DNA from: Nitrospirota bacterium
Lineage (GTDB): Bacteria; Nitrospirota; UBA9217
DNA length: 64,000 bases
Assembly (NCBI GenBank): GCA_963754875.1
Contig: CAVWHO010000016.1
Span: forward strand, 70,286-134,285
Reading direction: 5' to 3'
Positions 9,034 to 61,574 of this stretch are shown here, in pieces. Below the pieces are notes generated by a model that was not told the origin of the DNA, ran no database searches, and saw nothing but the letters and a program-made list of their open reading frames with translations. The position numbers were made by a program, and so were the translations under genes. Every line of letters begins with the position of its first letter. The first letter of the stretch is position 1.

Positions 9034-11012
9034 TCAATAGACGCCGATCACTTTTCCCATCTCCGAAATATCATAGCCCCCCATGGCCACGATCTGGTCC
9101 CGGAATGCTTTGTCCTCACGAATGATGGCCAAGAGCGCCTGCATCATGGGCATGTCATAGAACTCCTGTCGTGATTGCCAGATCATACCGCTCCTGCGCC
9201 ACAGGGATGAAATCCAGCTGGAGCGCCTGGGCTGCAGAGAGTACGGCAAGCCCCGTATCCGCTGCCCCGGAGAGCACGGCGGCAGCCACGGCCATGTGCG
9301 TAAATTCCTCGTGATCATACCCTTTTACATTCTTTGGGTCAATCTTTAATCGTTTCAAGTACAGGTCCGTCAGAAGCCGCGTGCCTGCGCCGGCCTGGCG
9401 GTTCACAAAGACCACGTCCTCGCGCACAAGGTCTTCGAATCCTTTGATGCCCTTCGGATTGCCTTGGGGAACAATGAAGCCCTGGGTCCGGTACACGAGG
9501 TTAATGAGCACGGTTTTTTGGTCCAGGAAGCATTTTTTTGATATAGCTTACGTTATATTCCCCCGTCTCCTCGTCAAGAAGATGGGTCCCGGCGAGATGG
9601 GCCTCCCGGCGCTTCAGCGCCAACAGCCCGCCCATGCTGCCCACATGGGCCGAGGAGAACGAAAACTCGGGATGTTTTTTCTTGAGGAAGTTCGCAAGCA
9701 CGTCGAGCACATTGTCGTGAGAGCCGATACAGACGATCGTGTTCTCGATATCGTGGGAAGAACGAAGCAGTTCGACCGTTACCTCGTGGTTCGATGCAAT
9801 ACCCTCGCTCGAGGCCGGTACGCGGATGATGCCGTCAGCGCGTACGAGCGACATGAGTGCCCCGGCCCCCCGGGTCACTGGCGTGGCGATCAGGTTCCCT
9901 GCGACGCTGCCGAGCTTGACGCGGATGAATTCCTCCTGCCCCAGCGATGACGCCACCTGGCGGCTCAGCTTTGCCGTAATCGTTCCCGGGTTAGGAGGCA
10001 TAGTGCCGAGGAGGGCGTAGATGAGCGGCTTGACGAAGAGATTGAACGTGAGCGCTGCCGAGACCGGATATCCGGGGATGCCGACGACCGGTTTCCCATT
10101 CACGATGCCCAGAATGACCGGCTTCCCGGGTTTGATCGCGACACCGTGCACAACGACCTTGCCAAGGTCGGCGATCACATCGGAGGTAAAATCCTCTCTC
10201 CCGGCTGACGAGCCGGCGTTGATCACCACGATATCCGAGTCAGCGAGTGCAGCAAGAATCGTCTTGCGCAGGAGAGCGGCATCGTCCTTGACGATGTTCT
10301 TGCGAATCGCATGGGCGCCACACTCGCTCGCCATCGCGGACAGCATGGTTGAATTGAAATCGATGATATCGCCCTTTTTGGGTAGGCTCCCCGGATCGAC
10401 CAGCTCCGTTCCCGTAGGGATGATCGAGACAACGGGCCGCGGTCGCAACATGACTGAGGTATGCCCGCTCGCGATCATGGCGGCCATGTCCACAGGACGG
10501 ACCACGTGGTTCTCGGAGATGATGAGCTCCGTTGCAACGATGTCCTCGCCCACGAGCCGCACATGCTGCCACGGAGTGGACGGCTTCAAAATTTCGATCT
10601 CGGAGTCGGAAACTTTTTCCACGTCCTCGATCATGATCACGGCGTTAAACTCATCGGGCAGGGGATCGCCGGTGTCGATGGCAACGGCCTGGGTCGGTAC
10701 TGTGAGGCGTTTGGGTCTTGTTTCTGCGGCGCCGAAGGTGTCGATGAACCGGACGGCGTAACCGTCCATAGCAGCGGAATGGTAAAAGGGCGACGAGATT
10801 TTCGCGATCACGGCCTCGGACGTGACCCGGCCGAGCGCATCGCCTACTTGTATGCGTTCTCCTCCAAGCGATCCGCCAAGAACGGCGGTTTTGAGCGCTT
10901 CTTGATATTTCCGGATTGCATCGGCAAGCGGCTCGTTATCGAGATATTTTTTTTGCTTGAATGCCATATTGAGTGACCTGTCTGTTTCGCGGGGGTTATC
11001 CCGCCATCCCAC
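9034..11012 (-). pseudogene. moeA: MoeA molybdopterin molybdotransferase fused to a C-terminal periplasmic-binding-protein-like (PBP_like) domain, interrupted by two frameshifts (or base-call errors)
   Basis: The 503-aa ORF 9501-11012 is MoeA (MDGYAV..., GGVSMG-type fold, ...GIPGYPVSAALTF...) continuing into the first half of a PBP-like domain (CIGSHDNVLDVLANFLKK...YIKKMLPGPKN). The rest of that domain continues in a second frame (LINLVYRTQGFIVPQGNPKGIKGFEDL...FIPVAQERYDL, ORF 9155-9511) and a third frame (AIIREDKAFRDQIVAMGGYDISEMGKVIGVY, ORF 9034-9318). Removing one base in the run ccaaaaaacc near 9510-9520 restores ...PKNVLINLV... Confidence 0.65.
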
Positions 11013-11096
11013 GGTGCGTGATCAGCACAACCTCCGACTGGCGAGGCGAGGTTTTTTTGTTTCGACCTGTCACGGTGCCTCTGTGGCGAACATCCT

Positions 11097-13904: not shown

Positions 13905-15063
13905 TCAGGAGATAGAGGTAGGGCCTGGGGAACTCTGGTCGCCCCTTATGCCGGGCATGGTCAACTTGTCGCAGTAACAGGTGACTCTGTTCTTGCCCAA
14001 TGATTTCGACCGGTAGAGAGCTATATCGGCTTCGTGGATCAGCTCGGAGACCGGCTTCATCGAGTCCACTTCCATGGTAGCGACGCCGAGACTGACGGTC
14101 ACTCTTTCATTCGGGTGGGCGACTTTTACGGTAAAGGGATACTCATCAACGGATTTTCGTACGCGTTCGGCAACTGCCATGGCTTCTTCGATGTCGGTCT
14201 CCGTGAGCAGGACGGAAAATTCCTCGCCGCCGTACCGGAAGCAGGTGTCAGTGCTGCCGGTCCGGCATGCCGCTTTCAGCAACGGGCCCATCTGCGCGAT
14301 CAGCCTGCTTCCTTCGAGGTGCCCGTAGCGGTCATTGATCCGTTTGAAATCGTCAATATCGATCATGATGAACGAAAACTCGCGGCCGGTTCGAAGCTTC
14401 CTGCGCACCTCGTCGTCAAGTTTTTCGAGCAGCACACGGTAGTTTAACATCCCCGTCAATTCATCTACCCGCGAAAGTTCAAGAGTCTTTCGAAAGAGTT
14501 CCGCCTTCTCCAACCCGGCCGAGATGAGGTGGGACAGGGTCCGGAGAAGGTCGAAATCCTCGACCCGAAATGCCGACGTTTTACTATGGCTGAATCCCAT
14601 GACGCCGACAATGCGGTTTTCATTCTTGAGCGGAATGCCGATATAACTGCCGTAGTCTTTCTGCTCATCGGGGTGGTGCAGAAAACTATCGAATAGGGCG
14701 GTGTCATCCAGAAAGAGCGGCTCGCCGCTGGCGGCAATAGTGCCCGGCGCCCCGTTATCGAAGTAGATGACGTCCTTCATTTTTGACTGCGAGGAGGGGA
14801 TTATACAGGAGGATCGGTTCCAGTCCCGTCAGGTCTTTTTTTACGATGTACACGGAAGCATCTTCAAAAATGATGGTCTTGCCTATGATGGCGACTATTT
14901 TTTGGATCAGTTCGGTCGGTTCGAGTTCCGACGCGATGATTTTCCCGACCTCATAAAAAAGATGAGTCTCCGTCAGTTTTCGGTAGAAGAGGGTCTTGAA
15001 ATCCCGTTCTCCGGCAGACGGCGTACCGAGTTTTTCCGCGGTTTTTTTCACTTTTGGCATCAC
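13905..15063 (-). pseudogene. GAF-GGDEF diguanylate cyclase, split by a +1 frameshift at an A5/T5 run near 14776-14786
   Basis: ORF 14755-15063 encodes the first half of a GAF domain (IIFEDASVYIVKKDLTGLEPILLYNPLLAVK). ORF 13905-14780 continues it (DVIYFDNGAPGTIAASGEPLFLDD...) into a GGDEF domain (RYGGEEFSVLL with the RxGGEEF-type active site). Deleting one A in gtcaaaaatgaagg fuses the two pieces into one uninterrupted ORF. Confidence 0.65.
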
Positions 15064-21933: not shown

Positions 21934-24900
21934 ATGAACCATTATCGATTCGATGTCGCTATTATCGGGGCCGGACCTGCCGGAGTAGCTGCTGCAGGAT
22001 CGCTCGCCGGCTCCGGTATAACCGTGGCTCTGGTTGAAGCTGGTGTGTACGCCGGGGCCGAAAACTGGTCCGGCTGCGTTTACTTCACGGAAAACCTCGC
22101 TGAAAAGGATTGTTTCGGCGCCGAAGCAATAGAGGCGGCCCCTTTTGAACGGCGTATTGCGCGCCGGGGCACTCTTATGCACAACGGGATCGACGTCATC
22201 GGCATCGAACTTACGAGTCTGGAGGCATTCAAGAACTGCTATACCGTTCTCCGCCCTGTCTTCGATCCCTATTTTGCTCATCTTGCCCGGGAGAAGGGCG
22301 CGGTCCACATCACCGGCACGACGGTGACCTCACTCATCAGGAAAGAAGGAAGGGTCGTCGGCGTCATGACGGATCGCGGTCCGCTTTATGCCGGCGTCGT
22401 TTTCCTGGCAGAGGGCGATGCTTCTCACCTTGTCCGGTCGGAGCAACTCGAGAACACCGCGCAGCCGCACTTTCTTCAGGGAGTGAAAGCCGTACTTTCG
22501 CTCGCGTCGGAGGAGATCGAAAAACGGTTCAAACTCGATCCGGGCAAAGGCGCGGCCTACGAACTGCTCCTTCGGAACCCTTCCCTCTCCGGCAGGACCG
22601 CAAAACTGAACGTCGGCGGTTTCCTGTACACAAACCGGGACAGCCTTTCGATGGGCTACGTTGTCCCCCTCGACAATCTGCGGGACTATTACCGTGGCAG
22701 CCACGACATGCTCTTTGAATGGATGCGAGGCCTTCCGTATCTCCGGGAACTGACCGAGGGCGCGGCGCTATCGGCTTACGGCACGAAGATCATCAGAAGC
22801 GGTGGATGGCGCGAACGGCCCGTGCTCGTTCAAAACGGCCTTGCAGTCGGTGGAGCATCAACGGGCCTCGGCGTGGACATTCCCTTCCCGAACTTCACCG
22901 GCCCTGCATCCGCAACAGGACTCTATTTCGCGCGGGCAGTCAAAAATATTTTCAAACGAGGGGGCGCCTTTGATGCCAAAACACTGAGCCGGGAATATCT
23001 TGAGCCGCTCCTCGAAAGCGTACATGGGGAAAACTCCCGCTATCTTTCCGCGTGGCCGGGCTATTTCGGGAAATCGAACGTCCTCTTCAGCAGGACCGTG
23101 GACATGGCCTGCGGCAGCGTTCACTTCTTGTCAAAGAAAGATATTGTCGAAACAGGGCGGTTTCTCAGAAACCATGTCCTTTCCGTTCGGGGGATCAAGG
23201 AATCAATCGTTGACACGATGCATGCAATCAGCGCGCTCAGGCTCTGGAGGCCCCTGGCAAAAACAGTGATCAATCCCCTGACGATCGGTCGCTGGTTCGC
23301 CAATCTTTTTAAAAGAGCGCCCGCCCCGGACCGGAAACTCGGCTTCATCATACAGATTGCCGGAAAAGAAAGGAACGCTGCGTCGCTGCCCTGGCCTACG
23401 GGCTCGCTTGTCAGACGGCTCTCTCCTGCACTTGTCCTTGCGCTCGAACAGATCTATGCAAATGACAACCGGCCTGCAGAGAAAAAGTTTTCTCACGCTG
23501 TCCGGAGTCTTCTGCAGGGACTCAAGCTGACTGATTTCATAATCCTTCCCGCCTTTGGCTTCGTTCTCGTTTTCTTTGCGCTCGGAACTGCGCTCTGGGA
23601 TGCCTTTCGTTTCTATTTGCTCAAGACGCCTGTGGACAAGCTCCTTGCGGAACCGGTCATGGCGTACAATGAATCCCTAAGGAAAGCGCGTGATCTCGAC
23701 GCAGTGAAACCCCGGCAGAGCCTGGAGGCGAAACTGGCGACGAACACCTACCATGTCGGGGACGCGTCGCACATCAGGACGCTCTGGCCCGAGGCTATCC
23801 CCGCCCATCCGGACATGTCTCAGGCAGCGCTCTGGTGGCTATGCCCTGCGCGGGTCTACGTGTACGACGCTCCACTCGCAGGCCGCGGCAAGGTCACGGT
23901 AAACTTCGAGAACTGTATCAAGTGCGAATCCTGCTGGAGGGCGGAACCTCAACGCGTGCTCTGGGGGCGCCACACAGATCACAAGCTTATTTACCGGCCC
24001 GACAGCGCAGCGATACCGGTTCTCCTGCATGCTCTTCGGGAAAATCTCCCTTCAAGAAAAGGGACGCATCCGGCGATTGCCCCCCTGGACGAAAAGCTCT
24101 GGTACCTGAACGAAGACGTGCTGCAGCTTGGACAGGAGGCGTTCAATGCATCATCGGCTTTCATTGATGCCGTTGCAAAGCTGCCCGCTTCGTCCGACCG
24201 AGGCAGAAATGCCTGGCCGCTTTCGCTCGGGAAAAGACTGTCCGAAAAACTCTTGAAGCTCGAAGCCGCTTTCACGAACGACGGCAGATACGCGCAGGCT
24301 GAAATTATTCAGGTCGAAAGGAAAGACATCGAGCTCAAGCTTACGGAAGGAAGACTTCTCCATGCGCTCTATTGCTGCCGCAGGTTTGAGCAGGGCATTC
24401 TGTCGTGGGTGCGTGAGGATGATGGTTATACGATTCCCGCATCAACAGTGAAAAAATATGACCGCACCCTCTCTTACGAAGAAGTCTCCCGCATCTTCCC
24501 TGACCGGATCGTAAAACAGTGGGAGGAAGAATTCATGCCCGATGCATGGGCAGAAACACTGCGGCAATTCATCCTCGAGCAGCGCGATAAACCGCTTGAG
24601 GCAATACGGGCGCTCTCCTCAGTGAACCCGGCCCTCGGACTGATTGCAGCGCACCAGCTTCTTGCCAATGAACTGCTCACGAAATCGAGTATCGAGCCTG
24701 GCCCGGGCATCTGCGCCGCAGCCGCCGACCATCTCGATATCGAAGAGGAGGGCAGCGGCAGCGTCCGCATAAAAGGCCCCCTGTCACTCGTCCCTATTGC
24801 GGCGAGCCGCACCCTGCTGCTCACGTCCGGTGGGAAAGGATACATTATCCCCCTTGCCGACGCGGGTGTTACGATCTCACACACGCCGACGATCGGGTTC

Positions 24901-27900
24901 AGGGCTGCGGGATTTGCCGATGTTTCGCTTGACGTGACCGTAACAACGTACGCTGTGCTATCGGCCGAAAGAACAGACATCCCTGAAGCTGCTTCCTACC
25001 TCGCCATCGCACTTGGAGCCGGCGACTACCTCTGCAAGAGGATAAAAGAACACGCTGCAGGAAGAGTTCAATTCCCGGGCCAGATGCTCGACACCGAGGG
25101 CAGGGATGGTATTGCGAAGCTCGGCGCAGTCAAGGCCATGATCGCCAGAACTGAAGCGTGGCGGCTCCTGCTTGAGAACCTTTACGACGTTTATGCCAAA
25201 CCGGAAAGCCGAAATCCGCAAACCGAAATGAATTTCTCCCTCATCTGCACTTCGCTCGCTGCCATGTCTTTCAGCCCGGAGCCGGGCGCCATGGGATACG
25301 ATGCGGGCCAGGTCTTCGGCGGATTCGCGTACTCCGAAGACGACCTGCTCTCGCGGTTCTACCGGGACAGCGCTCTCTTCCGGTTCCTGGCGCCGGGATA
25401 CGGCGCATCGACTAAGCTGCATGCCGCTCTCGTCTCCCTCAGTGATGACATCGTGTTTTCCGGCTTTGGCGACCTCGGAAAAATTCAAAATGCACCGCTC
25501 AGGGACTTCGTGCACGGCCTTTCGGACGTTGAGAACAAATGCCGTACCCTGCCCGAAAAAGCAGATCCGGGTCTCACGGGTGAAGCGCAAGCCGTCATCA
25601 TCGGCATTCGCAGGCTTCTCATCAGCATTGAAAACGGACTGAACCAGGGCAGGAGCACGGAACGAGAAGCTGCTGCCGCAGAAGTGCTCCTTGGTCTGGC
25701 GGAAGACGCGCTTCAGAAGGCCCGTCTCTCAACAGGACGCGGCCGCGTATCGCCCTTTGCTCTGTTCCCGGTGGAGCCCGGAGGTACGCCCGCCACGCTC
25801 GACAGGGACTATGAATCCTTCTGCAGAGCGCCCGGCGCTCCGCATATATCGGGTAGCTTCCTCCTGTCTGCATTCGACCGGGCATTGCGTTTTGTCCCTG
25901 AAGTGCAGCTCCATGACGCCCGCCTCCGAAACCGCTGGACCGAACTCACTGATTGGTTCAAACAGAACTGCCGCGACAAGAAATTCGAGGGACTTTTTAT
26001 CGAACGGTATATCGAGAAAATCCACGGCCTTCCTGACGAGGTCATCGATGCCGTCAAGAACAATAAGTGGCTCGCCACGTACGTTCCGAAATCCGAGGAC
26101 GGGCTCGGATGGCGCAAGGCTGAATATTACATCCTGAATTCCGCGGCAGGGAGCTTCGGTGACGCAGGCATCGATCTCCTCATCATGGCAAGCACGAGCA
26201 TCGGCACAACACCCATTCTCCTGGGACTCGAGGACGAGCTGCCGCGCGTGCGCCAGGAACTGGCGCCCCTGGCACAGGATGCAGGCATTCTGGGCGAGAT
26301 CAACACAAAGCTTTCCAGGATCATCGGGATGTTCTCGAACCCCAACCCGTCCCTGATCAGGAAAGAATACGAAGCGCTGATAAAACTCGTGGACGTCCGG
26401 GTCCGCCGCACCCGAGTGGTCAAGTATCTGGCCGCAAATTTCCTGCGCGCTTTTTACAGCGCAGGCATTGCAGGCAGGCGCGGCGATTTCAGCGGGTTCA
26501 CTGCAAACCTCAAACACGCAGGCGGCCTTTTCGAAAACATCATGCCCGATGTCCGTGCCGCCCTGGAAGAACTTCCTCGGCGCGAGCGATGCCATAAACT
26601 TTTCCTCCGTTATCTTGGCCACGGCGGCGTGAGCGCCTTTGCTCTTACTGAACCGACCGCGGGCTCGGACTCCGGCGGTGTCAAGACCACGGCGAAGTTA
26701 GAGACGATAAAACTCCTTCCCCGTGATGACGGAAGGTATGCTTTCCAGCTTGACGGGCAGAACGACAAAAGCGAGCGCTATTTGATCGACGCAGACAAGA
26801 TTGCCTTTACCGATCGGGGTATCTCATATCAGACGCCGGACGGGCAGTCTGCGTTAATTCAATATGACCGCTATGATTATGCAACTGACCAGGGGACGAG
26901 ATACTACCTGTACCAGGGGAACGTCTGCGAGTTCCATGACATCGGCCAGGTGCGAAAGACCAATGCCGGGCTTACGTATGAGTATTACAGCCTGACCGGT
27001 GCGAAGATGTGGATCACGAACGGAAGCATCGCGACCCAATTTTCCCTTTTTGCCCAGACAAACGAAGGCGTCACAGGTTTCATGGTGGACCGGCACAGCG
27101 AAGGACTCAAGGTCGGGGCGGACGAAGAAAAAATGGGGCAGCGAGGCTCGCCTACGAACGAAATCTCGATCGACGCTGTGCGCGTTCCGCGCGAGGCCGT
27201 GATCGGCTACGAAGGCCACGGCCAGGTGAATGCCCTCGAAACGCTGAACGTCGGGCGCTGCGGTCTTTCCGTCGTGTCCGGCGCGCTCAGTCGCAAGCTG
27301 TTGGAAGAAGCACGCCGAAATATTCCCTCAACGCCGGAGCGGGACCGATTGCTCGGCGAAGCTGCAGCGATCATGTTCGGCAGCGAGTCCCTTGCCTACT
27401 ACCTCGTAGGCCTATTCGACCGGCCTCACGAGTCGGTCCGCATGGAGTCAGCAATTGCAAAATATGTCTGCTCCGACGATATCCATGAACTCATCTCGCT
27501 CGTCGAGTATGCCTACGGCCCCTCCGGCCAGACGGAAAAGTTCCTGCTCGAAAAAGCGCGGCGCGATGCGCGCATCCTGACCATCTACGAAGGAACGAAT
27601 GAAGTGCAGCGATTTTTGATCCTGAAGGACCTGATCGCCATGGCCCCAGCCTGGTCCGAGATACCCGTGCCGCAGGATGATCCCGCATCACGAACGCTTG
27701 CAGAATGGAAGAACAAGCTGAGAAACCAGGTGAAGGAAGCGGCCCGCTTGCTCGGCGATGCGTCGTGGTCCGACGCGATGCTCCAGCCCGCACTTTTCCC
27801 AATTGCCGATACGGCGGGTGAGGTCCTGCGGCTTGACTGCATATACTACCGCATGGAGTGGCTCGAACAGCAAAGAGCGGTCCTCGAACAGGGAGATCGG

Positions 27901-35952: not shown

Positions 35953-35993
35953 GATTTCACCGCGTCCGGAAAAAAGGTCTCCTCTGAGGCTTT

Positions 35994-36824: not shown

Positions 36825-36840
36825 TGGCAGCATTTATGCT
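36825..36840 (+). promoter_or_regulatory. Sigma-54-type promoter TGGCAG-N5-ATGCT upstream of cytochrome c7
   Basis: aaTGGCAGcatttATGCTagg with correct GG-N10-GC spacing. It ends 27 nt before the ATG at 36868. Confidence 0.45.
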
Positions 36841-36867
36841 AGGAGAAGACGGCGGGAGGGAGTGGGC

Positions 36868-37185: not shown

Positions 37186-37408
37186 CAACGTGTCAGCAGG
37201 AAAGTAACATCCGTAATTCCCTGTAGACGGAGCGGCGGAGCTGCATTTCTCACCGAGGGGACACATGACCCTGTGAAGTGAGCGTTGCGACGTGAGGCGG
37301 TATTCGGGAAAATAAATTTTTGCTAGAATGTCGGCAGGTGCGTCAAGCATAAAAAAGCCAGTTCTGCACTTTGCAAATCTTACCTCTTAAGTTGAAAGAT
37401 CATGATAC

Positions 37409-40084: not shown

Positions 40085-40123
40085 GCCGGCAGGCGCCCTT
40101 AATAGAGTTACCGTTGAATAATT

Positions 40124-40138
40124 CGGCAGAGGGATTGC
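40124..40138 (+). promoter_or_regulatory. Sigma-54-type promoter CGGCAG-N5-TTGCG upstream of the haem-sensor chemoreceptor gene
   Basis: attCGGCAGagggaTTGCGatt with GG-N10-GC spacing, about 55 nt upstream of the start. Confidence 0.45.
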
Positions 40139-40195
40139 GATTCCACGCTTCTCAAACCGAACACTTACTACAGCTGAAAAGCGAGGAGTTGAACC

Positions 40196-41803
40196 GTGAT
40201 AATGAAAAAAACTATTAACGGCAATATGTCATTGTCTTCGAAAATTGGTGCCCCCATTGTTGTCGCTGTATTTATTGGTATTGCCATTTCCGTACTTGTT
40301 ACTGGCTATACAATGAAATTAATTGTTATTCAGGAGGTGGAGAAATCGACGCTGGAAACAACGCGAGATACGGTTCTGAATTCCCTTACAACAATGATGG
40401 TGAGTAATGATATTCAAAATTCAAAGAAATTATTCATCGACCAGATGAAGAATATTGTCGATCTGAAAGTAATCAGGTCAGATAAATTAAACGAACAATT
40501 TGGCACGGTTGAAAAAAGTTATACAAAAGATGATATTCAAGCGGAAGTACTCAGCAAAGGAGTAGAGAAAATAGTCCTTGAAGGTGAGTCTATAAGAGGG
40601 GTTTATCCCTATATTGCCAAGCGGAATATTATGGGGAGAAACTGCCTGAGCTGTCACAATGTGCCCGAAGGGACTGTCCTGGCGGCTGTGGACATAACAG
40701 TACCCCTCGGCGCCTCCTATGCGAGAATTAAAAAATTACAGTGGCTATTTGTCCTTTTGGGTCTTGCAGGAATTTTGACGCTCTTGTTTATTGTCCGTTA
40801 CATAATGAAAGTCATGCTGCGGCCCCTCCACGAAGTTATAAGCAAAATAAAGGAAGTTTCAACGGGCGATCTTACCGTACATTTCCCTTATCATAATAAT
40901 GACGAAATAGGGGTTCTCTCACGAAACATGGAAACAATGACGCAGTCGATTTCCTTATTAATCACGCGTATTCTGACAACATCCTCAAAAGTTGTTGATT
41001 CTGTCGATGCTCTTCAGCAAAGCGGAGACCGTCTGTTTACTAGCGCTAAAAACCAAGCCGTGCAGGCTCAACATATTGCGTCAGCGTCGGAAGAGATGAG
41101 CCTGACGATCGGAGACATAGCAAAAAATTCTTCCGTAGCGGCATCAATTACTTCAAACGCCATGAACATGGCGAACGGAGGAAAATCTGTCGCCGAAGGG
41201 GCCGTGCAAATAATCACTAATGTGGATGCCTGCAGTGCTGAGTTGCAGCACCTCATTAATGATTTGAATGAAAGCGCTATGGATATAGGCAACATTGTAA
41301 CTATTATCAATGGAATTGCCGATCAGACCAATTTGCTTGCGTTAAATGCATCGGTCGAAGCAGCGCATGCCGGCGATAAGGGCCGTGGTTTTGCTGTTGT
41401 TGCTGATGAAGTCCGCAAATTGGCCGAAAAAACGATTAATGCTACAATAGAAATATCCAGCAAAACAAAAGCAGTACAGCAAAAAACAAACCAAGCTACT
41501 ATATCGATGGAAAGTTCCTCGAAGGAAGTAAGTAAAGCCACTACACATATGAAGAGCGTGGGAGAACAATTACACCACATCGTGGATGCTGTTCAAAAAG
41601 CCAAGGACGAAATAATATCCATTGCTACAGCTGTTGAGGAACAGTCCTCGGTTGCCGAGAATGTCACGAAAAACATAGCAATAACATCTAATACCGCTCA
41701 AAGCATGGAAGATCTGGCAAACAATATTTCACATCAGGTTAATGCTTTAACCAAAGTAGTTACCGAGATGAGAGAATATTCCTCTGAGTTCAAAACTGCC
41801 TAA
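40196..41803 (+). CDS. Methyl-accepting chemotaxis protein whose periplasmic domain carries a CxxCH haem-binding motif
   Basis: 535 aa with two TM helices. Its periplasmic domain carries [23 protein letters not shown], and it has a HAMP domain. The MCP signalling domain carries the highly conserved [34 protein letters not shown]. Haem-containing chemoreceptors of this kind are known in Geobacter. Confidence 0.8.
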
Positions 41804-41849
41804 GGCGAACTGATAATGTTGGACCGCTGAAACAGATCACCGTTAGAGG

Positions 41850-44679
41850 TCACTGTCGCGGCAGCGTGATGGAAAAGGTCGTTCCCCTCCCCAATTCGGT
41901 CGTAACGCGGATATCGCCATGATGGTCAACAAGTATTTTTTTTGTAATCGCAAGTCCGAGGCCGGTCCCCCCGTTGGCAGCTTTCGTCGTATAGAAGGGG
42001 TCAAAGATCCTATTGATCTGCTCCGGCAATATGCCGCCTCCCGTATCGCTGATCCTGATGTTGACCGCCTCCTCCTCAGCAACCGTCTCGATGGCCAAGG
42101 CGCCTTTGTCGTCCATGGCGTCGAGGCCGTTTGTAATCACCGTGAGAAAGACCTGCCTCAGTTCCCCTTCGTTCCCATAGACGGTAAGGTTCCCTTGTGT
42201 ATAGCCTCTCACCACCTCGACTTCTTTTAATCTGCCTTGAAGGCTGATGACCTCCAGTGTCCTGTCGATCATCTCATGGACATCGATCGTCTTTTTGTCC
42301 GGCGAGCCTTTCCGTACGAACGAAAGCATGCCTGTGGTTATATTTTTGCACCGCGCAATCTCTTCTTCGATGATCTCCAGATATTTCTTGAACAGCGCCG
42401 GCTCAAAGTGTCCCTGGTTAACCCGGTTCAAGAGACCTTCCGCACATCCCCTGATCGCGGCCAACGGGTTGTTGATCTCATGGGCGATGCTCGCCGCCAT
42501 CTGTCCGAGAGATGCCAACCGCTCGTTCATGATGAACCGCATCTCTCGTTCCCGTTCCTGCGTCACGTCTCTTACGATATTGATGGTCCCGCCGGGGGCC
42601 CCATCGGGGTTCAGGTAAGGAAAGTGCGTGGTCACCAACGTTCTTTTATTTATCGGGTCCACCTGTTGGACATCAGCCGCGATGCCTGTTTCCTGTATCC
42701 TATGGTGCGGACAATCAGTATAGGGATCACGTGATTCGTGGACCAGTTCGTAGCATTTCTGATTGAGAATTGACGAAAAGCTCTTCCCAACATACGCAGC
42801 AAAGGCCTTGTTCGCCTTGATAATCCTGTATTCCCTGTCGGTGATGCAGATGGGGTCCTGGATATTATCGAAAGTATCACTCCATTCTTTCTCGGAACGG
42901 CTGACCTGAGCGACCAGATACTGAAGCTCCATGACGAACTTCTCCCGTTCCATCTCCATCCGCTTTCGCTGTGAAATATCGACCACCGCGATCCGGATCT
43001 GACCTGCCTTATCGTCGACATTATCGGCGATCGTACTCTGGAGTTGGGCGTAAAATGCCGGGGCATTTCTCGGTACTATCCTCAACTCGCAGGTCTGTAA
43101 TGCTTGGCTCCTGAATGTTTCCTTACGATGGCCTTCGTAAACTGCAAGATCGCCCTTTTCGATAAAAGGGGTAAAAGATTCCCCTATCAACAGATGCCTG
43201 GTTACGCCCACCATATTGGCCCCGGTAAGATTCGCTTCCCGGATCCGACCGCTTGCATCAATCAAGAAATACCCGAACCGGAGAGAAATCAAAGAGGTCC
43301 CTATATCTGGCGCGGGAGGATTCAAGCTCCACCCGCGCGCGGTGCAACGTTTTTTCCGCCTGTTTGCGCTCAGAGATATCGCGTACGATCGCCACCATGT
43401 ATCGCTTCCCCCCCTCGGCAACAGGCATGACGTTGATTTCAACGGGGAAGACACTGCCGTCTTTTCGCCGATGCAAACTCTCGATCATAAACGATCGACG
43501 CTTGAGGACGTCTTCGCACCTTTGTTTCCATGAGTGATCGTCCGGAATATTTAGGTCGAAGTCCCTTACCGACAAAGACAGCACTTCCGGGCGGGTGTAA
43601 CCATACCTCTCGCAGACTTTCTCGTTGCAGTCCGAAAAACGGCCGGTTTCGTGATCAGTTACGAATATGCAATCGTTTGACCGGTCGATAAGCGCGCGAA
43701 ACAGCCTCAGGTCCTTCTCAGCCTGCTTCCGGCTGGTAATGTCCCTCGCTACTTCAACAGCCGCGACGACCTCCCCCGACACATCGCGCACCGGAGATGC
43801 AATAAGTTCGTACGTTACTTCGCCCCGTTGTTCGATCAGGCCAGTTCGCTCCACGATATGGCGCTTCCCATCCTGGAAGGACAGCACAAGGGGGCAATCT
43901 TCACAGACAGCGTCCTTCTTCCGGTACGCCTTGTAGCAATACTCGCCGACATGGTCTCCGCCGACAAGTTCCCTGTGGAGCCGATTCTGATAAATGACCC
44001 TGAAATCCCTGCCCTGCATGCTGACGCCATCGGCTATAGCCACTATGATAGCCTCGGACTTGTTTTTTTCTTCTACGGTTTTTGCCAGCGCCCGACGCAA
44101 CGTTTCTTCCGCCTGTTTGCGCTCGGAGATGTCCACAACGGCAATTCGGATCAGACCGTTCGCCTTGCCATCCTGTTCGACAGCCAAGCAGTGCAACTGA
44201 GCAAAAAACGGGGAACCGCTCTTTCTTTTGAGTTTAACTTCGCAAGGTTGCTGGTACTTCTTCTCGATGACTTCGGCAAAATGAGAGAGGAACACCCGCT
44301 GTTCTTTCCTGTCCGCGAGAAAAACGGAGAAGGGTCCGTTGATCACTTGCAGCCGGTTGACGCCGAGCAGGGTCGCACAGGCGAGGTTAATTTCCTTGAT
44401 CGCGCCGCGGGCATCGAGCGCAAGATAGCCGACAGGCGCAAAATCGTACAAATCGGCCAACTTGTCGCGGGACGATTCCAGTGCCTCCCTCGTACGTCTG
44501 AGCTCTTCGTTCTGCATTTCGAGCTCGATCTGGTGAGTTCCGAGCTCATTGACGAGCTGTTTTAAATCATAGGTCGTGAGCTTGCTCAAGCCTTTCGTCT
44601 GTTCACCGAGCTTTTTCTTCGCCTTCCGTCGAAGGGCGGCGAGGGTTTCCGATTTTGAACTGGATTTTTTCGTAGGCAT
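41850..44679 (-). pseudogene. Large multi-PAS sensor histidine kinase split into two ORFs by a 1-nt insertion near 43274-43280
   Basis: ORF 43258-44679 encodes a coiled-coil plus about 4 PAS domains ending ...RARYRDLFDFSPV. ORF 41850-43454 continues in the +1 frame (GYFLIDASGRIREANLTG...) through more PAS, HisKA (HEINNPLAAIRG) and HATPase_c (DTGGGI...GTGLGLAI). Deleting the c in ccggttcgggtat joins them. The 5' end is set at the internal ATG at 44679, which overlaps the upstream regulator gene by 18 bp. Confidence 0.65.
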
Positions 44680-44695
44680 TCTTCTCACCGAATCC

Positions 44696-46012
44696 TCATT
44701 CTTCCACCCCGTAGCTTGCCAGCTTCCGGTACAAGGTCTTCGGGTCAATGCCGAGCAGTTCCGCCGCCTTGCCCCGCTGTCCTGCCGATGCGTCGAGGAC
44801 GCGCAGGATGTGCTCCCTCTCGACGTCTTCGAGCCGCGTGGAGGCTGCCTTCGGGCCCGTGACAAGATCGAGAGGGAGGTCGTAGGGTTCAATCACATCG
44901 CTGCGCGACAGGAGGAGCGTCCGGTGCACGACGTTCTGCAGTTCCCGCACGTTTCCGGGCCACGGGTATGCTGTGAGGACGCGGAGCGCCGACTCGCTGA
45001 ACCGCTTTTGCTTGAAAGCGGCGTCACGCTTCGTAAAGTAATCGATCAACGCCCGGATGTCCTCCTTGCGCTCCCGCAAGGGCGCAATCGGCACGGTGAG
45101 CGCCGTGACCCGGTAATACAGGTCTTGCCTGAAGGCCCCTTTCCGGATTTCTTCCTTAAGGTCCTTGTTCGAAGCAGCAAGTATCCTGATGTCCACCTTC
45201 TGCTCACGGGTGCCGCCGAGCCTGAAGAAACTCCCAGTTTCAATGACCCGGAGCAGCTTTATCTGGAGCGCAAGGGGCATGTCACCGATCTCATCGAGGA
45301 AGAGCGTCCCGCTGTTCGCGACTTCCAGGAGTCCGGGTTTTCGTGCTGAAGCGCCGGTAAATGCACCTTTTTCAAAACCGAACAATTCGCTCTCGATCAT
45401 GTTCTCGGGAATCGCCCCGCAGTTGATCGGGACAAAGGGACCGCCGGCGCGCTTCGACTCCCGGTGGATGCTCGCTGCAATCAGTTCTTTGCCCACGCCG
45501 CTCTCGCCGGTAATGAGCACGGGGAAATCGGATTGAGCGACCTTTTTCGCGGTCTCCTGCAATTCCTGCATTACGCGACTCGCGGCAATAAGGTGTTTCC
45601 GTTCCGTCTGCCGCTGAATTTGCGTTTTTAAAAGAATATTCTCGCTGCGGAGCTTCTTTTTTTCGTAGGCTTTATCGATGATCGGTCCAAGTTCTTCCAG
45701 GCGGAATGGCTTCGACAGGTAATCATAGGCCCCGAGTTTCATGGCCTCGACGGCAGTCGATATGGTTGCGTTCGCTGTCAGCACGATCACTTCGGTGGGA
45801 ATATCGAGAGACTTTATTTTTTTTAGGACATCGATGCCCACGAGTCCGGGCATGTTCAGATCGAGAAGGAGAACATCATATTCGTCCTGATCGAGCAGTT
45901 CCAGAGCCCGCCGTCCGTTTTCCACCTCATCTACATGAGTGTGATCGTTCGAAAGCTCCGTACGCAACACCTGCCTGATGTTCTTTTCATCGTCGGCAAC
46001 GAGCAGTTTCAT
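44696..46012 (-). CDS. Sigma-54-dependent response regulator (NtrC family: receiver, AAA+ sigma-54 activator, Fis-type HTH)
   Basis: 438 aa. KLLVADDEKNIRQVL...DVLLLDLNMPG is the receiver. GESGVGKELIAASIH...GAFTGA...GTLFLDEIGDMP, GSFFRLGG and the ESELFG motif mark the AAA+ sigma-54 activator. The C-terminal EREHILRVLDASAGQRGKAAELLGIDPKTLYRKL is the HTH. Confidence 0.9.
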   Translation of the reverse strand: MKLLVADDEKNIRQVLRTELSNDHTHVDEVENGRRALELLDQDEYDVLLLDLNMPGLVGIDVLKKIKSLDIPTEVIVLTANATISTAVEAMKLGAYDYLSKPFRLEELGPIIDKAYEKKKLRSENILLKTQIQRQTERKHLIAASRVMQELQETAKKVAQSDFPVLITGESGVGKELIAASIHRESKRAGGPFVPINCGAIPENMIESELFGFEKGAFTGASARKPGLLEVANSGTLFLDEIGDMPLALQIKLLRVIETGSFFRLGGTREQKVDIRILAASNKDLKEEIRKGAFRQDLYYRVTALTVPIAPLRERKEDIRALIDYFTKRDAAFKQKRFSESALRVLTAYPWPGNVRELQNVVHRTLLLSRSDVIEPYDLPLDLVTGPKAASTRLEDVEREHILRVLDASAGQRGKAAELLGIDPKTLYRKLASYGVEE

Positions 46013-56011: not shown

Positions 56012-56012
56012 C

Positions 56013-56669
56013 ATGGATGTCCGGAAACTTCTCTTCGAAAATTGGGGCATCAAACTCCTCTCGCTGGTTTTATCGGTCTCTCTTTGGTTCTATGTCACTT
56101 CAAAAGGCAAGACCGAGATGACGCTCACCGTGCCGCTCGAGCTGCGAAACATCCCGCAAAACATGGCCGTGGTCGGTAACGTGGCCGGTTCCCTCGACGT
56201 GCGTGTGCAAGGACAGGAGCGGGCGCTCCGTGACATTACGATCGGGAAAAAGGTGTATGGTTCCCTCGACCTGTCCCTGACCAAAATCGGCGAGAATGTC
56301 GTGCCAATTTCGCCCGACGATATTCGCCGGCCTTCAGGGGTGACCGTCATGCATATTTCCCAGTCAGAAGTCAAAGTGAAGCTGGAACCGCTAGTACGAA
56401 AAACCTTCCGCCTCAAGCCCATCCTCTATGGCCTTCCCGCCGCAGGCTATCGTGTCAGAAGGATTGCAGTCACTCCTCACCACATAACGGCGGAAGGCCC
56501 GGAAAGTGTTATCAAGACACTGGAAAGCCTCCAAACCATGCCGATCGACGTTCAGGGGGCAACCACGGGCTTGACCGTCGAACCCAAGATCGACTATCAG
56601 GGGAAATCAATCAAGATCATTGATACCAATATATCTGTCCGGATAACAATCGAAAGGGCAAACAGATGA
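56013..56669 (+). CDS. cdaR: CdaR/YbbR-like regulator of CdaA
   Basis: N-terminal TM, then YbbR-like repeats. It starts 1 nt after the cdaA stop. The start is set at the ATG (MDVRKLLF). The ORF track's upstream extension overlaps cdaA out of frame. Confidence 0.65.
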
Positions 56670-58018
56670 AAAAACTATTTGGAACCGATGGGGTCCGGGG
56701 AGTGGCGAACAAGGATCCCATGACTTCGGAGATGGCGCTCCGCATCGGCAGGGCCGCGGCCCATGTGTTCCGCGATTCTGCACGCAGGCACCGCATCGTT
56801 ATCGGCAAAGACACGAGATTGTCGGGCTATATGATCGAAAGCGCACTGACATCGGGCCTCTGCTCCATGGGTATGGACGTGCTGCTCATCGGGCCGGTGC
56901 CCACGCCGGGGATTGCATTCCTGACCAGGAGTCTGCGGGCCGACGCAGGTGTCGTTATTTCTGCGTCGCATAACCCCTACGAAGACAACGGGATCAAATT
57001 CTTCGGCAGGGACGGATTCAAGCTTCCTGATGAGACGGAAGAAAAGATGGAGGAACTGATCTATTCCGGCGAGATCGACGCCATCCGGCCCACGGCCGCA
57101 GAAATCGGCAAGGCGAACCGCATCGACGATGCAATCGGCAGATACAATGAGTTTGTGAAATCATCGATTCCCCGCGGCATGGACCTCTCGGGACTGCGCA
57201 TTGTCGTCGATTCGGCAAACGGCGCGGCATACAAGATAGGCCCGCGCATCCTCATGGAACTGGGAGCAGACGTTATTTCCCTGTACGACCAGCCAACCGG
57301 CATGAACATCAACCAGGGTTGCGGCTCGCTCTATCCCGAAGTCATCTCACGGGCCGTCGTGGCCAACCAGGCACAGGTCGGGATCGCTTTTGACGGGGAC
57401 GCGGACCGGATCATTTTCTGCGACGAACGCGGCACGGTGGTGGACGGCGACACAGTCATGGCGATCTGCGCACTCAGGATGATGAAGGAAGGCAGGCTCA
57501 AGCAGAACACGCTTGTTGCCACGGTCATGAGCAATCTCGGTCTTGAACTCGCAATGCAGCACGCGGGCGGCAAGCTGGTTGCGAGCTGCAGTCGGCGACC
57601 GGTATGTCATGGAGAAAATGCTGTCGGGCGGCTTCAATCTCGGAGGCGAGCAGTCGGGCCACATCATCTTCCTGGACCACAATACTACGGGCGATGGCCT
57701 CATTTCCGCGCTCCAGGTCCTTACGATCATGAAGCAGTCGAACAAACCCTTGTCCGAGCTGGCGACGTGCATGAAGACCTATCCCCAGATCCTTGTGAAC
57801 GTGAAAGGTAAAACAACGGCAGCGACCTCTTATCGATTCCCGAAATTTCGAAGCACATGGCCGAGATCGAGAAGAAGCTTGACGACACCGGACGTCTGCT
57901 CGTGCGGTACTCCGGTACGGAACCCAAGGTCCGCGTCATGATCGAAGGAGAAAATCAGCAGGAGATCAAGGTGCTTGCCGAGGACCTGGCCGGGCTTATC
58001 AAGGAAAAGCTCGGCTGA
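56666..58018 (+). pseudogene. glmM: Phosphoglucosamine mutase GlmM, carrying two compensating frameshifts: a +1 near 57580, and a -1 in an A-run near 57806-57813
   Basis: Frame 2 from 56666 gives [15 protein letters not shown]...[16 protein letters not shown]...[20 protein letters not shown]. Frame 0 from about 57581 continues [47 protein letters not shown]...QILVNVKGK. Frame 2 from about 57808 finishes [67 protein letters not shown], with the stop at 58016-58018. Confidence 0.7.
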
Positions 58019-58087
58019 GAATCGGATCCAGGCTTAAAATGTAGATACCGTTTCGCGCGTCTCGTTGATAATGCGGATAGGGAATAG

Positions 58088-60664
58088 ATGGGATACGTGT
58101 CATTCAGTACTCGCAGGTTTCTACTCTCTCTATGCACAAACCCGTCATCACTATCGCGCTCGCTTACCTCGCAGGCCTTCTGCTCGGGCACGGGTTTCTG
58201 TACTTCCCTCTTTCCCATCAGCATCATTTTTGTTCTCAGCCTGCTGGCATTAGGCATTGCCACCTGGTCTCGTAAATGCACTCTCCGCCAGTATCTGATC
58301 CTCACCATCCCGGGTGTCATCGGCATGGCAGCATATATCTATGCCGCAGCCTGGCTTCCTTCGGACCACTATACCCGGGTTTTCCAGCCTGACAGGAATG
58401 TCGCGGCTCATTACGGGCATGGTCGCTTCGCCGCTCGATCGTAACCCGGGCCGAACTGCATTCGATTTGAGCCTGCTCGATATTGACGGAACCCGCGTCA
58501 GCGGCAGGGTCCGCGTGAACGTACGCGAGGAACTGACGGCCTTGGGCTACGGCGACCGCATCCGCGTCTCCGGCATGCTGTCCGAACCGAGAGGGTCCAA
58601 TAACCTGGGCGGCTTTGATTACCCTGCATACCTGGCCCAGAACGGCATCTATTTCACGGTGAATGTAAAGAACGCCGAGAAAATCGACATCCTCAGCCGC
58701 GGCACGGGCATTTTCAGGACGATCCAGGACTGGCGCGAGCGAATCCGCCAGGCGTTCCTCGCGTCAACGACCGGTCAAGGCTCTGCCATCATCCAGGCCA
58801 TGGTGCTGGGAGAAGAGGGCGGGCTGACGGACGAAGTGCGCGACCGGTTCATGGCAGCGGGGGTCACGCACATCATCTCCATCTCCGGGTCTCACCTCGG
58901 CATGGTGGCGGTCCTTTGCTTCGGCCTGATCAGGGGCCTGCTGTTCCTGATGCCGGAACGGCTTCTACCACCGTTTGACCCTCTTCACCGACCCGAAAAA
59001 AATTGCCGCATGGCTTACCTTGCCGCTCGTGATTTTTTACACGCTCCTCGCAGGCGGACAGGTCGCCACGGTCCGCTCGCTCGTCATGATAGCGGCCGGG
59101 CTGGCCGCGCTCATCCTGGACCGCGAACATGCGCTCATGCAGTCCCTCGCGCTTGCGGCCCTCCTCATCCTGGGAACAAACCCGCAGGCCATCTTCGACA
59201 TCTCCTTCCAGCTTTCCTTTCTCTCGGTTTTCGTCATCGGCGCCGCTGTTGACCTCTGGAATGAACTGCAGATCGAGGCGAAGACTACGCCTGCAAAAAA
59301 TCAGGAATACACTGGTTCTTCTCATCATCATTTCTCTGTCCACCAGCCTTGCGACAGGGCCGCTCGTGGCTCATTATTTCAACCAGATCTCGTTCGCCGG
59401 TCTCCTATCGAATATCGTCGTGGTGCCGTTTGCCGGCATGGTCGTCGTGCCGCTGGGACTTTTCTCGGGCATTCTTTCCCTCTTTACCCATCATCTGCCC
59501 CTCGCCGGTCTTAACCAAACCGTGGCCGACGTCTTTATCGCCGTCGTTGCCTTTTTCGCGGATTTCCCGTTCGCTGAATTTCATCCTCCTTCGCCCAACA
59601 TTCTGTGGTTGATGTTTGCAGCAATCTTTCTTTTCTCTTTGTTTGGAGTAGTCAGAGCGTGGCTGCTTTTCCGGTTCAACCCTTTTGAAAACACGTCCCG
59701 GATATCAAGAGGTTCCCTGCTTGGGATGGCAATCGCAGGCGGTACCCTTCTCTTCCTCTCAGTACATGCCGCCCTGCCGAGCGGAAGAACGGAGGTCGCC
59801 TTTCCTGACGTCGGCCAGGGAGACTGCGCGCTCGTAGAACTGGCGACAGGCAAGAGGGTCCTGATAGATTCCGGCGGCACGCGCGACAACAGATTTGATA
59901 TGGGGAGACACGTGGTGGCCCCGTATCTCTGGAATAGGGGTGTGTATAAGCTTGATCTTGTCGTGTTGTCTCATCCCCATCCGGACCATATGAACGGGCT
60001 CTTGTTTATTCTGAAGAAGTTCAGGGTGGGAGAGGTCTGGACCACAGGCCGTGATACAGAATTGCCCGGTTACGCCGAATTGTTACGCATTGCCGTAGAA
60101 AAAGGGATCGCCACACACATTGTATCGGCTGACGACCCTCCGGTCATGCTCGGCGGAGCGGAACTACGTGTCCTCCATCCGGCCGCAACATTTAAGCCCC
60201 GGACGAAAAAAGCGTACGATGCCGAGAACAACGATTCCCTGGTCCTGCGCATCGCTGATGATCAGAAAGTATTTTTATTTCCCGGGGACATCGGGGCGCC
60301 GGCGGAGAGCTACCTGGTACAGCATGCGTCCGGGCTTGCATGCGACCTGCTCAAGGTCCCGCACCATGGAAGCAAAAGTTCGAGCACCGAAGGCTTTGTT
60401 GCACTCAGCCGGCCGAAGATCGTTGTGGTGACCGTGGGCAGAGGCAACCTCTATCATCATCCCGCGGATGATGTCCTCGCGCGGTACGAGAGCATAGGGA
60501 GCCGGATCTTCCGGACGGACAATGACGGCGAAGTCATGATAAGAAATCTCTCAGGCAAGCTCGAGGTAGAATCGTGGAACACGCTGGTTCTGAGAAAAAT
60601 AGACTTGAGGCGATCGGGCGTCCTGGAGAGAGCGGGAACGAGGAGAACTGGAGGAGGCTGGTGA
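58088..60664 (+). pseudogene. comEC: ComEC/Rec2 DNA-uptake channel (DUF4131, Competence domain, metallo-beta-lactamase), fragmented into four ORFs by three +1 shifts
   Basis: The pieces are 58088-58444 (frame 2, N-terminal TM), 58314-59252 (frame 0: GGFDYPAYLAQNGIYF...AAGVTHIISISGSHLGMVAVL), 58975-59514 (frame 1, TM region) and 59129-60664 (frame 2: TM region plus MBL fold VLSHPHPDHMNGL...VPHHGS). The shift sites are near 58314-58444, 58957-58977 and 59265-59280. Confidence 0.65.
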
Positions 60665-61574
60665 TCAGGACAGCGGGGACTTGATGGGATAGACCTTCAG
60701 AAAATTCAGAAACTCCTTGGCAGTATGGGTGCAGTAATTGCGCTTCGGCGAAATGATGCTGAAATTTCTATGGAACTTGACGTCCTTAAAGGTCAGTGCC
60801 TTGAGGGTGCCGTGCTTGAGCGCCGGGCGCGCCGCCCAGGCTGACACGATCGAGACGCCCATCCCCTCTTCCACGGCGCTTTTGATCGCTTCGATGCTGC
60901 CGAGTACAAGGGCTATCTTGAGGTGGTCCAGCTTGATGCCGTGGTCTTCGAGGTGTTTCAGGATGATCTGGCGCGTGCCGGACCCCTCTTCCCGGAGAAT
61001 GAGCGGTTCCTTGATCAGGTCCATGCCCGGGAATGTTGCGGCGATCGGCCCAGGGGTGGGCAGGCGACACGATCACCACCAGTTCATCGGACAATAGTGT
61101 GTCGACGGTAAAGCGCTGTTTGCTCACGTCGCCTTCCACCAGGGCCATGTCGATCTCGCCTGCATTCAGTTTCTCGGTTATGATCTTCGTATTGTTTATG
61201 ACCAGCGAAATATTGACCTGGGGGACCTTTTTCTTGAAGGCGGCAATGATCGACGGGAGAAGATAGTTGCCGATCGTCATGCTGGCGCCGACGGAGAGCG
61301 AGCCTTTGATGGCGCCGGTGATCTCACTGATGTTTTTCTGAGCCTCGGCGTAAAGTGCGAGGATTTCTTTCGCCCGCTTATAGAGGATCTCGCCGGCCGG
61401 CGTCAGGTTGATGGTATTCCCCGACCGGTCGAACAGCCGCGTCTCATACAGTTCTTCCATGGCTTGCACCTGCAAGCTCACAGCCGGCTGGGTCAGATGA
61501 ATCAGCTCCGAAGCCTTGGAAAAGCTTTTGGTGTCTGCGACAGCGCAGAATACTCTCAGTTTATGGTCTTCCAT
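60665..61574 (-). pseudogene. LysR-family transcriptional regulator split by a 1-nt insertion near 61040-61065
   Basis: ORF 60786-61574 encodes the HTH (FSKASELIHLTQPAVSLQVQAMEE) and the first half of the substrate-binding domain, up to VIVSPAHPWA. The rest (DLIKEPLILREEGSGTRQ...) is in the +1 frame (ORF 60665-61024). Confidence 0.65.

Follow-up and report, generated by a model that had tools for sequence, protein, structure and literature searches.

The open reading frames of six genes in the 64,000-nt window (the whole stretch of Nitrospirota DNA that was analysed) are interrupted by single-base frameshifts, and these breaks most probably represent a consensus-error artefact of long-read metagenome assembly rather than decaying genes. 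Judged from the sequence, with the platform deduced indirectly, we give this reading a probability of about 0.9. The frameshifts are present in the deposited sequence; the real MoeA-PBP, GAF-GGDEF, PAS kinase, glmM, comEC and lysR genes are almost certainly intact in the organism. As to base-call error versus decay, the evidence is indirect but strong, and it settles the matter on the side of error. The original prediction had kept two branches. The first, that in the case of base-call errors every pseudogene call would be wrong and the proteins full length, is backed by the restored, stop-free reading frames and by dN/dS values like those of neighbouring genes. The second, in which the organism would be shedding its competence along with regulators and a MoeA-PBP fusion, finds no support, since the corrected genes are full length, lack stops and have the dN/dS of their intact neighbours, while glmM is hit three times.

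Refinement by nucleotide alignment to relatives, or by frame order for the kinase, placed 14 frameshift sites in the six genes: two in MoeA-PBP, one each in GAF-GGDEF, the PAS kinase and lysR, three in glmM and six in comEC (Table 1). The existence of at least ten such sites had been predicted, and the count is thus raised. Pfam domains are divided between reading frames in each of the six genes named, so their identification as frameshifted held in every case, and the giant ORF, clpB, ftsH, aspS and tilS proved intact, as had been claimed. A Viterbi scan based on codon usage, run over the entire window, revealed no frame switch outside the six genes, and Pfam found no split domain in the weak-coding stretches at 21.0-21.9, 29.8-31.1 and 35.5-37.4 kb, a search made without relatives and not exhaustive. 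An Rfam scan of the window returned tRNA-Met only.

Table 1 Frameshifted genes of the window and the inserted bases (in square brackets) located in them
Feature	Position	Strand	Remarks
MoeA-PBP fusion gene (molybdopterin biosynthesis protein)	9034..10967	-	Three frames as deposited; 643 aa minus two bases
MoeA-PBP insertion	9168	-	ACGA[C]AGG (gene strand), non-homopolymer; alignment to short-read contig L081
MoeA-PBP insertion	9524	-	CCT[G]GAC (G to GG), 5 nt upstream of A6 run, outside the run; alignment to L081
GAF-GGDEF diguanylate cyclase gene	13905..15063	-	Pfam; 385 aa minus one base
GGDEF insertion	14789	-	TCG[C]AGT, outside the neighbouring A5 run; alignment to L081
Multi-PAS histidine kinase gene	41850..44679	-	Pfam; about 942 aa from first ATG minus one base, open frame
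Kinase insertion	43275, +/- about 2 nt	-	GTT[C]GGG; frame order, without orthologue
glmM (phosphoglucosamine mutase)	56666..58018	+	Pfam; 449 aa minus three bases
glmM insertion	57579..57581	+	CTGG[T]TGCG; absent in 13/13 relatives and L163
glmM insertion	57802..57804	+	GTG[A]AAGG (AA to AAA); absent in 13/13 relatives and L163
glmM insertion	57821	+	CGGC[A]GCG, non-homopolymer; absent in 13/13 relatives and L163
comEC (DNA internalisation competence protein)	58132..60684	+	Frames 1-2-3-1-2-3-1 as deposited (tblastn); 848 aa minus six bases
comEC insertion	58210..58214	+	CTTT[C]CCAT; alignment; missed by the original prediction
comEC insertion	58403..58408	+	Placement uncertain within about 58395-58411; tblastn and alignment
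comEC insertion	58962	+	ACGG[C]TTC, non-homopolymer; alignment
comEC insertion	59286..59289	+	ACTAC[G]CCTG, non-homopolymer; alignment
comEC insertion	60609..60616	+	Near comEC 3' end; alignment; missed by the original prediction
comEC insertion	60640	+	GAAC[G]AGG; alignment; missed by the original prediction
LysR-family regulator gene	60665..61574	-	Pfam; 302 aa minus one base
lysR insertion	61029..61032	-	TTCC[C]GGG; absent in 8/8 relatives and L163

The lesions form a uniform class. Each of the 14 sites carries a single extra base (sign test P = 1.2e-4), so that the predicted +1 direction, which had been ascribed to most of the sites, applies to all of them. The coding sequence of the affected genes contains no nonsense codon, no multi-base indel and no deletion. 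Ten of the sites lie within 57579-61029, that is, within 3451 nt of the 64-kb window (binomial P = 1.7e-10). Including the inserted base, the run length is 1-3 at every site, and in eight cases the inserted base is unlike both of its neighbours; the placement of several frameshifts at homopolymer runs could consequently not be upheld, most sites being free of runs. Homopolymer miscalls were considered as the cause and rejected: neither the A5 run near 14780 nor the A6 run near 9515 is an indel site. No common sequence or methylation motif was seen among the 14 sites.

Alignment also changed several individual positions. In MoeA-PBP, the site predicted at about 9160-9200 was recovered, and the other moved out of the T6/A6 run at about 9515. 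The GGDEF frameshift stood, although not its location in the A5 run at about 14780, and that of lysR was relocated from about 61050. The kinase site, expected at about 43277, was placed practically where it had been put. Two sites had been proposed for glmM and three for comEC; both genes are indeed frameshifted, with three and six insertions, respectively. An interim description of glmM as carrying one insertion and one deletion in an A-run was replaced by three insertions after 13 relatives had been aligned. The N and C termini of ComEC are encoded in other frames.

The comparison with related genomes for which the original prediction had called was carried out on Nitrospirota MAGs, and 13 of the 13 insertions compared are private to the window, the kinase site being excluded. 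The comparison sets comprised 13 relatives and L163 for glmM, eight relatives and L163 for lysR, L001 and L163 for comEC (its insertions are absent from both), and L081 for MoeA-PBP and GGDEF. In intergenic DNA, about 11 insertions and six deletions of 1 nt separate the window from L081, which is uninformative at 87% identity.

Removal of the 13 tested bases yielded unbroken ORFs without internal stops for GlmM (449 aa), ComEC (848 aa), LysR (302 aa), MoeA-PBP (643 aa) and GGDEF (385 aa). These lengths agree with those of the relatives: glmM measures 1350 nt in all 13 of them, ComEC orthologues in more than 100 clusters have mostly 848 aa, about 30 LysR relatives are unbroken at 298-302 aa, and MoeA-PBP orthologues in more than 120 clusters are unbroken at 642-644 aa. 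GGDEF relatives have 384 and 389 aa, the L081 orthologue being unbroken, 384 aa long and 97% identical. The NCBIfam equivalog cut-offs are exceeded by the corrected GlmM (TIGR01455, 626.7 bits against 447.55, covering model positions 1-441 of 442), ComEC (TIGR00361, 281 against 190), LysR (NF040786, 268.8 against 250) and MoeA-PBP (NF011068, 784 against 534, end to end). A metagenome scan did not find a close orthologue of the PAS kinase, only distant matches with 32-50% partial identity; its site therefore rests on frame order and on an internal PAS repeat, the junction between DLFDFSPV and GYFLIDASG matching an earlier PAS module of the same protein, DLYDFAPVGYLALDARG.

Relaxed selection was not found in the affected genes by dN/dS or by Tajima relative-rate counts, a test that a very recent inactivation would escape. 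The dN/dS values of the corrected genes are 0.03-0.20 against 0.024-0.235 for 15 intact neighbours, and the Tajima counts, 21 vs 32 for ComEC and 5 vs 3 and 6 vs 11 for GlmM, reveal no acceleration in the window lineage.

The dependence of such lesions on sequencing technology was examined with a control in which the same conserved gene set was followed through 80 loci of relatives, 13 from MFD Nanopore-only assemblies and 67 from others. Frameshifts numbered 15 in 148 kb of the former and two in 370 kb of the latter (Fisher P = 5e-7), and private 1-nt insertions numbered 19 in 114 kb and one in 260 kb, respectively (P = 2e-9), with no single-base deletion among the private indels of the relatives. 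Lesions of this kind are thus about 20-40 times rarer in those assemblies of the same clade that are not Nanopore-only. The genes struck in the MFD MAGs are ftsH, tilS, hpt, folP, cdaA and glmM; the insertions there are likewise clustered and mostly outside homopolymers, 12 of them lying in the ftsH of L042. In L082, an ENA assembly with 'contig_' names, the genes for DnaJ, ClpB, ExbD and TonB are split. The usual description of consensus errors from Nanopore data is one of indels in homopolymers, frequently deletions. The insertion-only, mostly non-homopolymer pattern departs from this textbook picture, and the support for attributing it to the platform comes solely from the MFD MAG control.

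Of the other explanations, the one that survives best, while still being quite improbable, is mixed: most sites would be errors, and comEC with its six sites a true pseudogene heading for a larger deletion. The gene is demonstrably dispensable in the clade and has the highest lesion density. Moreover, two close relatives, L002 and L036, have truly lost comEC through one 2.4-kb deletion, so decay of this gene alone was not implausible beforehand. However, the comEC lesions share their signature with those of glmM and lysR, with which they form one contiguous cluster, and the restored ComEC has exactly 848 aa and no stop. Its dN/dS (0.17-0.20) is similar to that of tilS and folP, and at outgroup-conserved sites it has accumulated fewer private changes than the intact sister gene (21 vs 32).

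Real and recent decay, with 14 true frameshifts and an ongoing loss of competence (comEC), several regulators, MoeA-PBP and glmM, is less probable again. It draws on the presence of the frameshifts in the deposited sequence, on the annotation of the fragments as separate proteins and on the genuine comEC losses just described. Bacterial indels that are genuine tend to be deletions and arise chiefly by slippage in runs, and in natural decay deletions are expected to be no fewer than insertions, indels to fall in runs or repeats, and nonsense codons and larger deletions to accompany them. Against this spectrum stand 14 insertions, mostly outside runs, with orthologue lengths recovered on correction, and dN/dS and relative rates equal to those of intact genes; the one genuine loss in the clade is, moreover, a single deletion. 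In most bacteria, glmM is essential for peptidoglycan synthesis. Three hits in this gene (a TIGR01455 equivalog, one window copy considered) do not suit the loss of dispensable functions, and ftsH, tilS and glmM are similarly hit in other Nanopore-only MAGs, where such lesions are far commoner than in the remaining assemblies of the clade. We regard it as equally doubtful that the insertions are real but of another origin, namely a local burst of +1 insertions around comEC caused by error-prone repair or an insertion-prone polymerase, or the onset of comEC loss, in either case tolerated or bypassed even in glmM. Recoding by programmed +1 ribosomal frameshifting or transcriptional slippage, with shifts that are real but harmless, is the least credible of all: the direction is uniform and the sums for glmM (three) and comEC (six) are multiples of three, but the 14 sites have no common motif, no slippery or stop-codon context and no long A/T run, none is conserved in any relative compared, as programmed sites such as that of prfB are, and up to six sites per gene would leave a negligible yield.

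Under the preferred reading, that of consensus error, the sequence would be a metagenome-assembled Nitrospirota consensus built from long, error-prone reads, with platform and pipeline deduced from the comparison with other MAGs. The most likely source would be Nanopore-only reads assembled by Flye and polished once by Medaka, as was done for the long-read MAGs of Microflora Danica, with no short-read polishing at any stage. A stray extra base would shift the frame by +1, and gene callers would then break a single gene up into between two and seven separately deposited pieces. The concentration of 10 of the 14 errors in and around comEC suggests a stretch poorly supported by reads, possibly owing to low local coverage or strain heterogeneity. 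The MFD-LR pipeline consists of Flye --meta --nano-hq and one Medaka round without short-read polishing, and its authors acknowledge Nanopore-associated errors in low-coverage MAGs (PMC12313526). For R10.4 data, bins with less than 40x coverage require Illumina polishing because indels break up gene calls (PMC9262707).

Among known systems, the closest likeness is to the indel errors of long-read-only (Nanopore) assemblies, of the type detected by IDEEL (PMC9262707; PMC12313526), which, like those of the window, are private, technology-dependent, found also in essential genes and correctable to full length. The occurrence of lesion clusters in some MAGs and none in others fits a dependence on coverage. 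The difference is that the literature stresses homopolymers, whereas the window and the MFD MAGs examined display insertions only, mostly elsewhere. Pseudogenes of reductive decay, for example in recently host-restricted pathogens and symbionts, resemble the present case in that several genes close together are frameshifted, some of them with dispensable roles in competence or regulation; the window differs in lacking deletion bias, nonsense codons and relaxed selection, in the triple hit to an essential gene and in that the lesions follow technology. Programmed +1 frameshifting of the prfB type and rescue by transcriptional slippage in endosymbionts share the +1 direction and a downstream frame encoding conserved protein. 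However, conservation, a slippery or stop-codon context and a long poly(A/T) tract are lacking at the window sites, of which there are several per gene.

Out-of-frame fragments from the window, for example a 'GlmM' of 381 aa in which the final 75 residues are read in the wrong frame, already form singleton clusters in public protein collections. When related Nanopore-only MAGs are used to count pseudogenes, to estimate completeness, to call pangenome presence/absence or as a source of protein-family seeds, frameshift-aware handling or short-read polishing is needed. For the organism itself, the breaks have no biological significance: because they are a consensus artefact, in all probability, the six genes should be scored as intact, and neither a loss of competence nor genome decay should be claimed from them.

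Pfam domains of six genes in this gene-dense bacterial stretch (GC 43–60%) were distributed over overlapping ORFs in differing frames (table), and a seven-state codon-usage Viterbi scan, trained on the window's long ORFs, confined within-gene frame switches to the same six genes. The frameshifting of recognisable genes claimed in the original prediction is therefore real. Moreover, a public protein collection contains two window proteins, both singleton clusters from a 648,585-bp contig (sources NCBI and ENA): an out-of-frame 381-aa fragment of GlmM, the phosphoglucosamine mutase (56666–57811), and a 291-aa GGDEF fragment (13905–14780). Thus, the frameshifts are present in the deposited record, and the pieces are annotated as separate proteins.

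Split genes of the window, with Pfam domains divided between frames, and positions of the extra bases
Gene	Coordinates	Strand	Inserted bases	Remarks
MoeA-PBP (molybdopterin biosynthesis fusion)	9034–11012	−	9524, 9168	two insertions
GAF-GGDEF	13905–15063	−	14789	one insertion
multi-PAS histidine kinase	41850–44892	−	~43275	frame order and internal PAS-module match
glmM	56666–58018	+	57579–81, 57802–04, 57821	missing from 13/13 relatives and L163
comEC (DNA internalisation competence protein)	58132–60684	+	~58210–14, ~58403–08, 58962, 59286–89, ~60609–16, 60640	six insertions
LysR regulator	60665–61574	−	61029–32	missing from 8/8 relatives and L163

Scanning of GTDB species representatives with repaired GlmM (extra bases deleted) provided 80 related loci, nearly all from uncultured Nitrospirota MAGs and exclusive of the window's own genome, the closest GlmM match having 92% amino-acid identity. 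Protein searches and contig look-ups added two JGI metagenome contigs from short reads, L081 (sharing synteny with 5.6–20.6 kb at 87% nucleotide identity) and L163 (with 52–64 kb at 84%), together with L082, a locus of an ENA "contig_" assembly. In a TonB-like gene that contains a (CAGAAA)n repeat (7054–7797, minus strand), the proline/lysine-rich linker differs in length from that of L081 at several places, always in frame, and identity to L081 is only 54%, against 92–94% for the flanking genes.

Nucleotide alignment to relatives placed the sites, except for that of the PAS kinase, which was placed by frame order; its junction, DLFDFSPV/GYFLIDASG, matches an earlier PAS module of the same protein, DLYDFAPVGYLALDARG. 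The total was 14 sites, each with one extra base in the window. The frameshifts are thus more numerous than the at least ten reported earlier, and all, rather than most, are +1. Six sites instead of three were found in comEC (frame order as deposited 1-2-3-1-2-3-1), the first 25 and last 14 codons of which had gone unrecognised, and the A5 and A6 runs that had been named as sites merely adjoin them. Counting the inserted base, run length was 1–3 at all 14 sites; the inserted base differed from both neighbours at eight, and comparison of the 14 site contexts gave no common motif. Ten sites lay within 57579–61029, that is, comEC and about 450 nt on either side (binomial P = 1.7e-10), and at the insertion rate prevailing outside it, a 7.9-kb ORF that stays intact is no surprise (P = 0.59). 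Two more single-base insertions relative to L163 are intergenic (53812, which follows the ftsH stop and precedes the folP start, and 62416, upstream of a PhoU_div gene) and could be errors or natural differences, which are indistinguishable at 84% identity.

We consider single-base insertion errors of an unpolished long-read consensus to be the best explanation of the frameshifts (probability about 0.9). Frameshifts in conserved genes (tilS, hpt, ftsH, folP, cdaA, cdaR, glmM, comEC, lysR, and others) of the 80 loci served as a technology control. By tblastn frame changes, 13 loci from the Nanopore-only Microflora Danica long-read (MFD) MAGs (148 kb) carried 15 frameshifts, of which 13 were +1, against two in 370 kb for the 67 other, mostly short-read loci (Fisher P = 5e-7). 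By nucleotide alignment, private single-base events were 19 insertions and no deletions in 114 kb of MFD loci, against one insertion and no deletions in 260 kb of the others (P = 2e-9). The MFD insertions, every one private to a single MAG, struck ftsH, tilS, glmM, folP, hpt, and cdaA, essential genes among them, and were clustered and mostly outside homopolymers; ftsH of L042 (MFD00905.bin.2.216) alone had 12, and other carriers include L012, L047, L051, L023, and L027. Some MFD MAGs were free of such insertions, which would fit a coverage-dependent rate. In L082 (1600–13700), the DnaJ, ClpB, ExbD, and TonB genes are split. One of the only two frameshifts outside Nanopore-only MAGs was a 2-nt deletion in tilS of L017, a short-read MAG with a k141 contig (alignment columns 677–678), which differs in type from the insertions.

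For the MFD MAGs, Nanopore reads were assembled by Flye (--meta --nano-hq), followed by a single Medaka round and no short-read polishing, and the authors remark on Nanopore-associated errors in lower-coverage MAGs (PMC12313526). The same group found that R10.4 bins below ~40x need Illumina polishing, with indels fragmenting gene calls (PMC9262707). The window has the same insertion signature as these MAGs, and its contig was probably also obtained by long-read (Nanopore-type) sequencing. Its 648-kb length, its NCBI+ENA label, and its derivation from an uncultured soil-type Nitrospirota would be compatible with such an origin.

Decay of comEC only is the least improbable of the alternatives, although we regard it as very unlikely. 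Intact 848-aa comEC is kept in L001, L163, and about 25 other relatives, but in L002 (11351–11743) and L036 (11351–11613) glmM is followed directly by lysR, with a ~125-nt comEC 3′ remnant (aa ~791–840) between them. The presence of comEC therefore varies within this Nitrospirota clade; the gene is dispensable, so that decay of comEC alone has a higher prior. However, both loci truly lost comEC through a single ~2.4-kb deletion, which shows that natural loss takes another form than the single-base insertions of the window. If comEC-bearing and comEC-less strains coexisted in the sample, read support on the comEC path would be thin or conflicting, which suggests strain mixture as a possible cause of the insertion cluster around this gene.

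Decay of all six genes, which would include the shedding of competence, regulators, and a MoeA-PBP fusion that the original prediction gave as one of two alternatives, is even less probable and does not agree with the state of the repaired genes. Deletion of 13 bases in five genes gave uninterrupted ORFs of 449, 848, 302, 643, and 385 aa, which matched the orthologue lengths and contained no internal stop codons or multi-base indels; deletion of the kinase base likewise gave an open frame. The repaired proteins passed NCBIfam equivalog cut-offs: GlmM, TIGR01455 (626.7 against 447.55 bits); ComEC, TIGR00361 (281 against 190); MoeA-PBP, NF011068 (784 against 534); and LysR, NF040786, "selenium metabolism-associated LysR" (268.8 against 250). 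Pairwise dN/dS to the nearest relatives was 0.03–0.20 for repaired genes and 0.024–0.235 for 15 intact neighbours, and Tajima relative-rate counts at outgroup-conserved sites revealed no acceleration in the window lineage for ComEC (21 changes private to it, against 32 for L001, its intact sister), GlmM (5 against 3 and 6 against 11), or LysR (1 against 0), both tests being blind to very recent inactivation. Six independent frameshifts in one gene without other signs of decay are unlike a neutral pseudogene. In addition, glmM, an essential gene in most bacteria through its role in making peptidoglycan precursors, carries three insertions. Spontaneous bacterial indels are biased to deletion and concentrated in runs; the window has 14 insertions against no deletions, mostly outside runs. 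Recoding is hardly credible.

Other features of the window were also recorded. The repaired LysR gene adjoins a PhoU_div/PHO4 phosphate-transporter pair (62441–63067, plus strand). For the PAS kinase (41850–44679, minus strand), JGI metagenomes yielded no close orthologue (at best 32–50% over parts), whereas the genes around it show good conservation in related MAGs. The stretch at 35465–42000 (GC 43–48% against ~55%), which may be acquired DNA, lacks a confident coding signal over ~1.9 kb (35465–37406) and encodes a hybrid histidine kinase-receiver with a Tll0287-like sensor (37409–40084) and a methyl-accepting chemotaxis protein (40196–41803). The intact ORF at 21934–29853 (plus strand) encodes an unusual giant fusion of 2,639 aa, with Pfam matches only to an N-terminal FAD-oxidoreductase fold (aa 5–167), acyl-CoA dehydrogenase middle and C-terminal domains (aa 1681–1899), and an ETF-alpha FAD domain (aa 2507–2588), and ~1,500 aa without a family match.

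The frameshifts themselves hold little biological interest; in practice, they caution against taking pseudogene calls and protein fragments from long-read-only MAGs at face value, the 381-aa GlmM and 291-aa GGDEF fragments illustrating how artefactual sequences reach protein databases.
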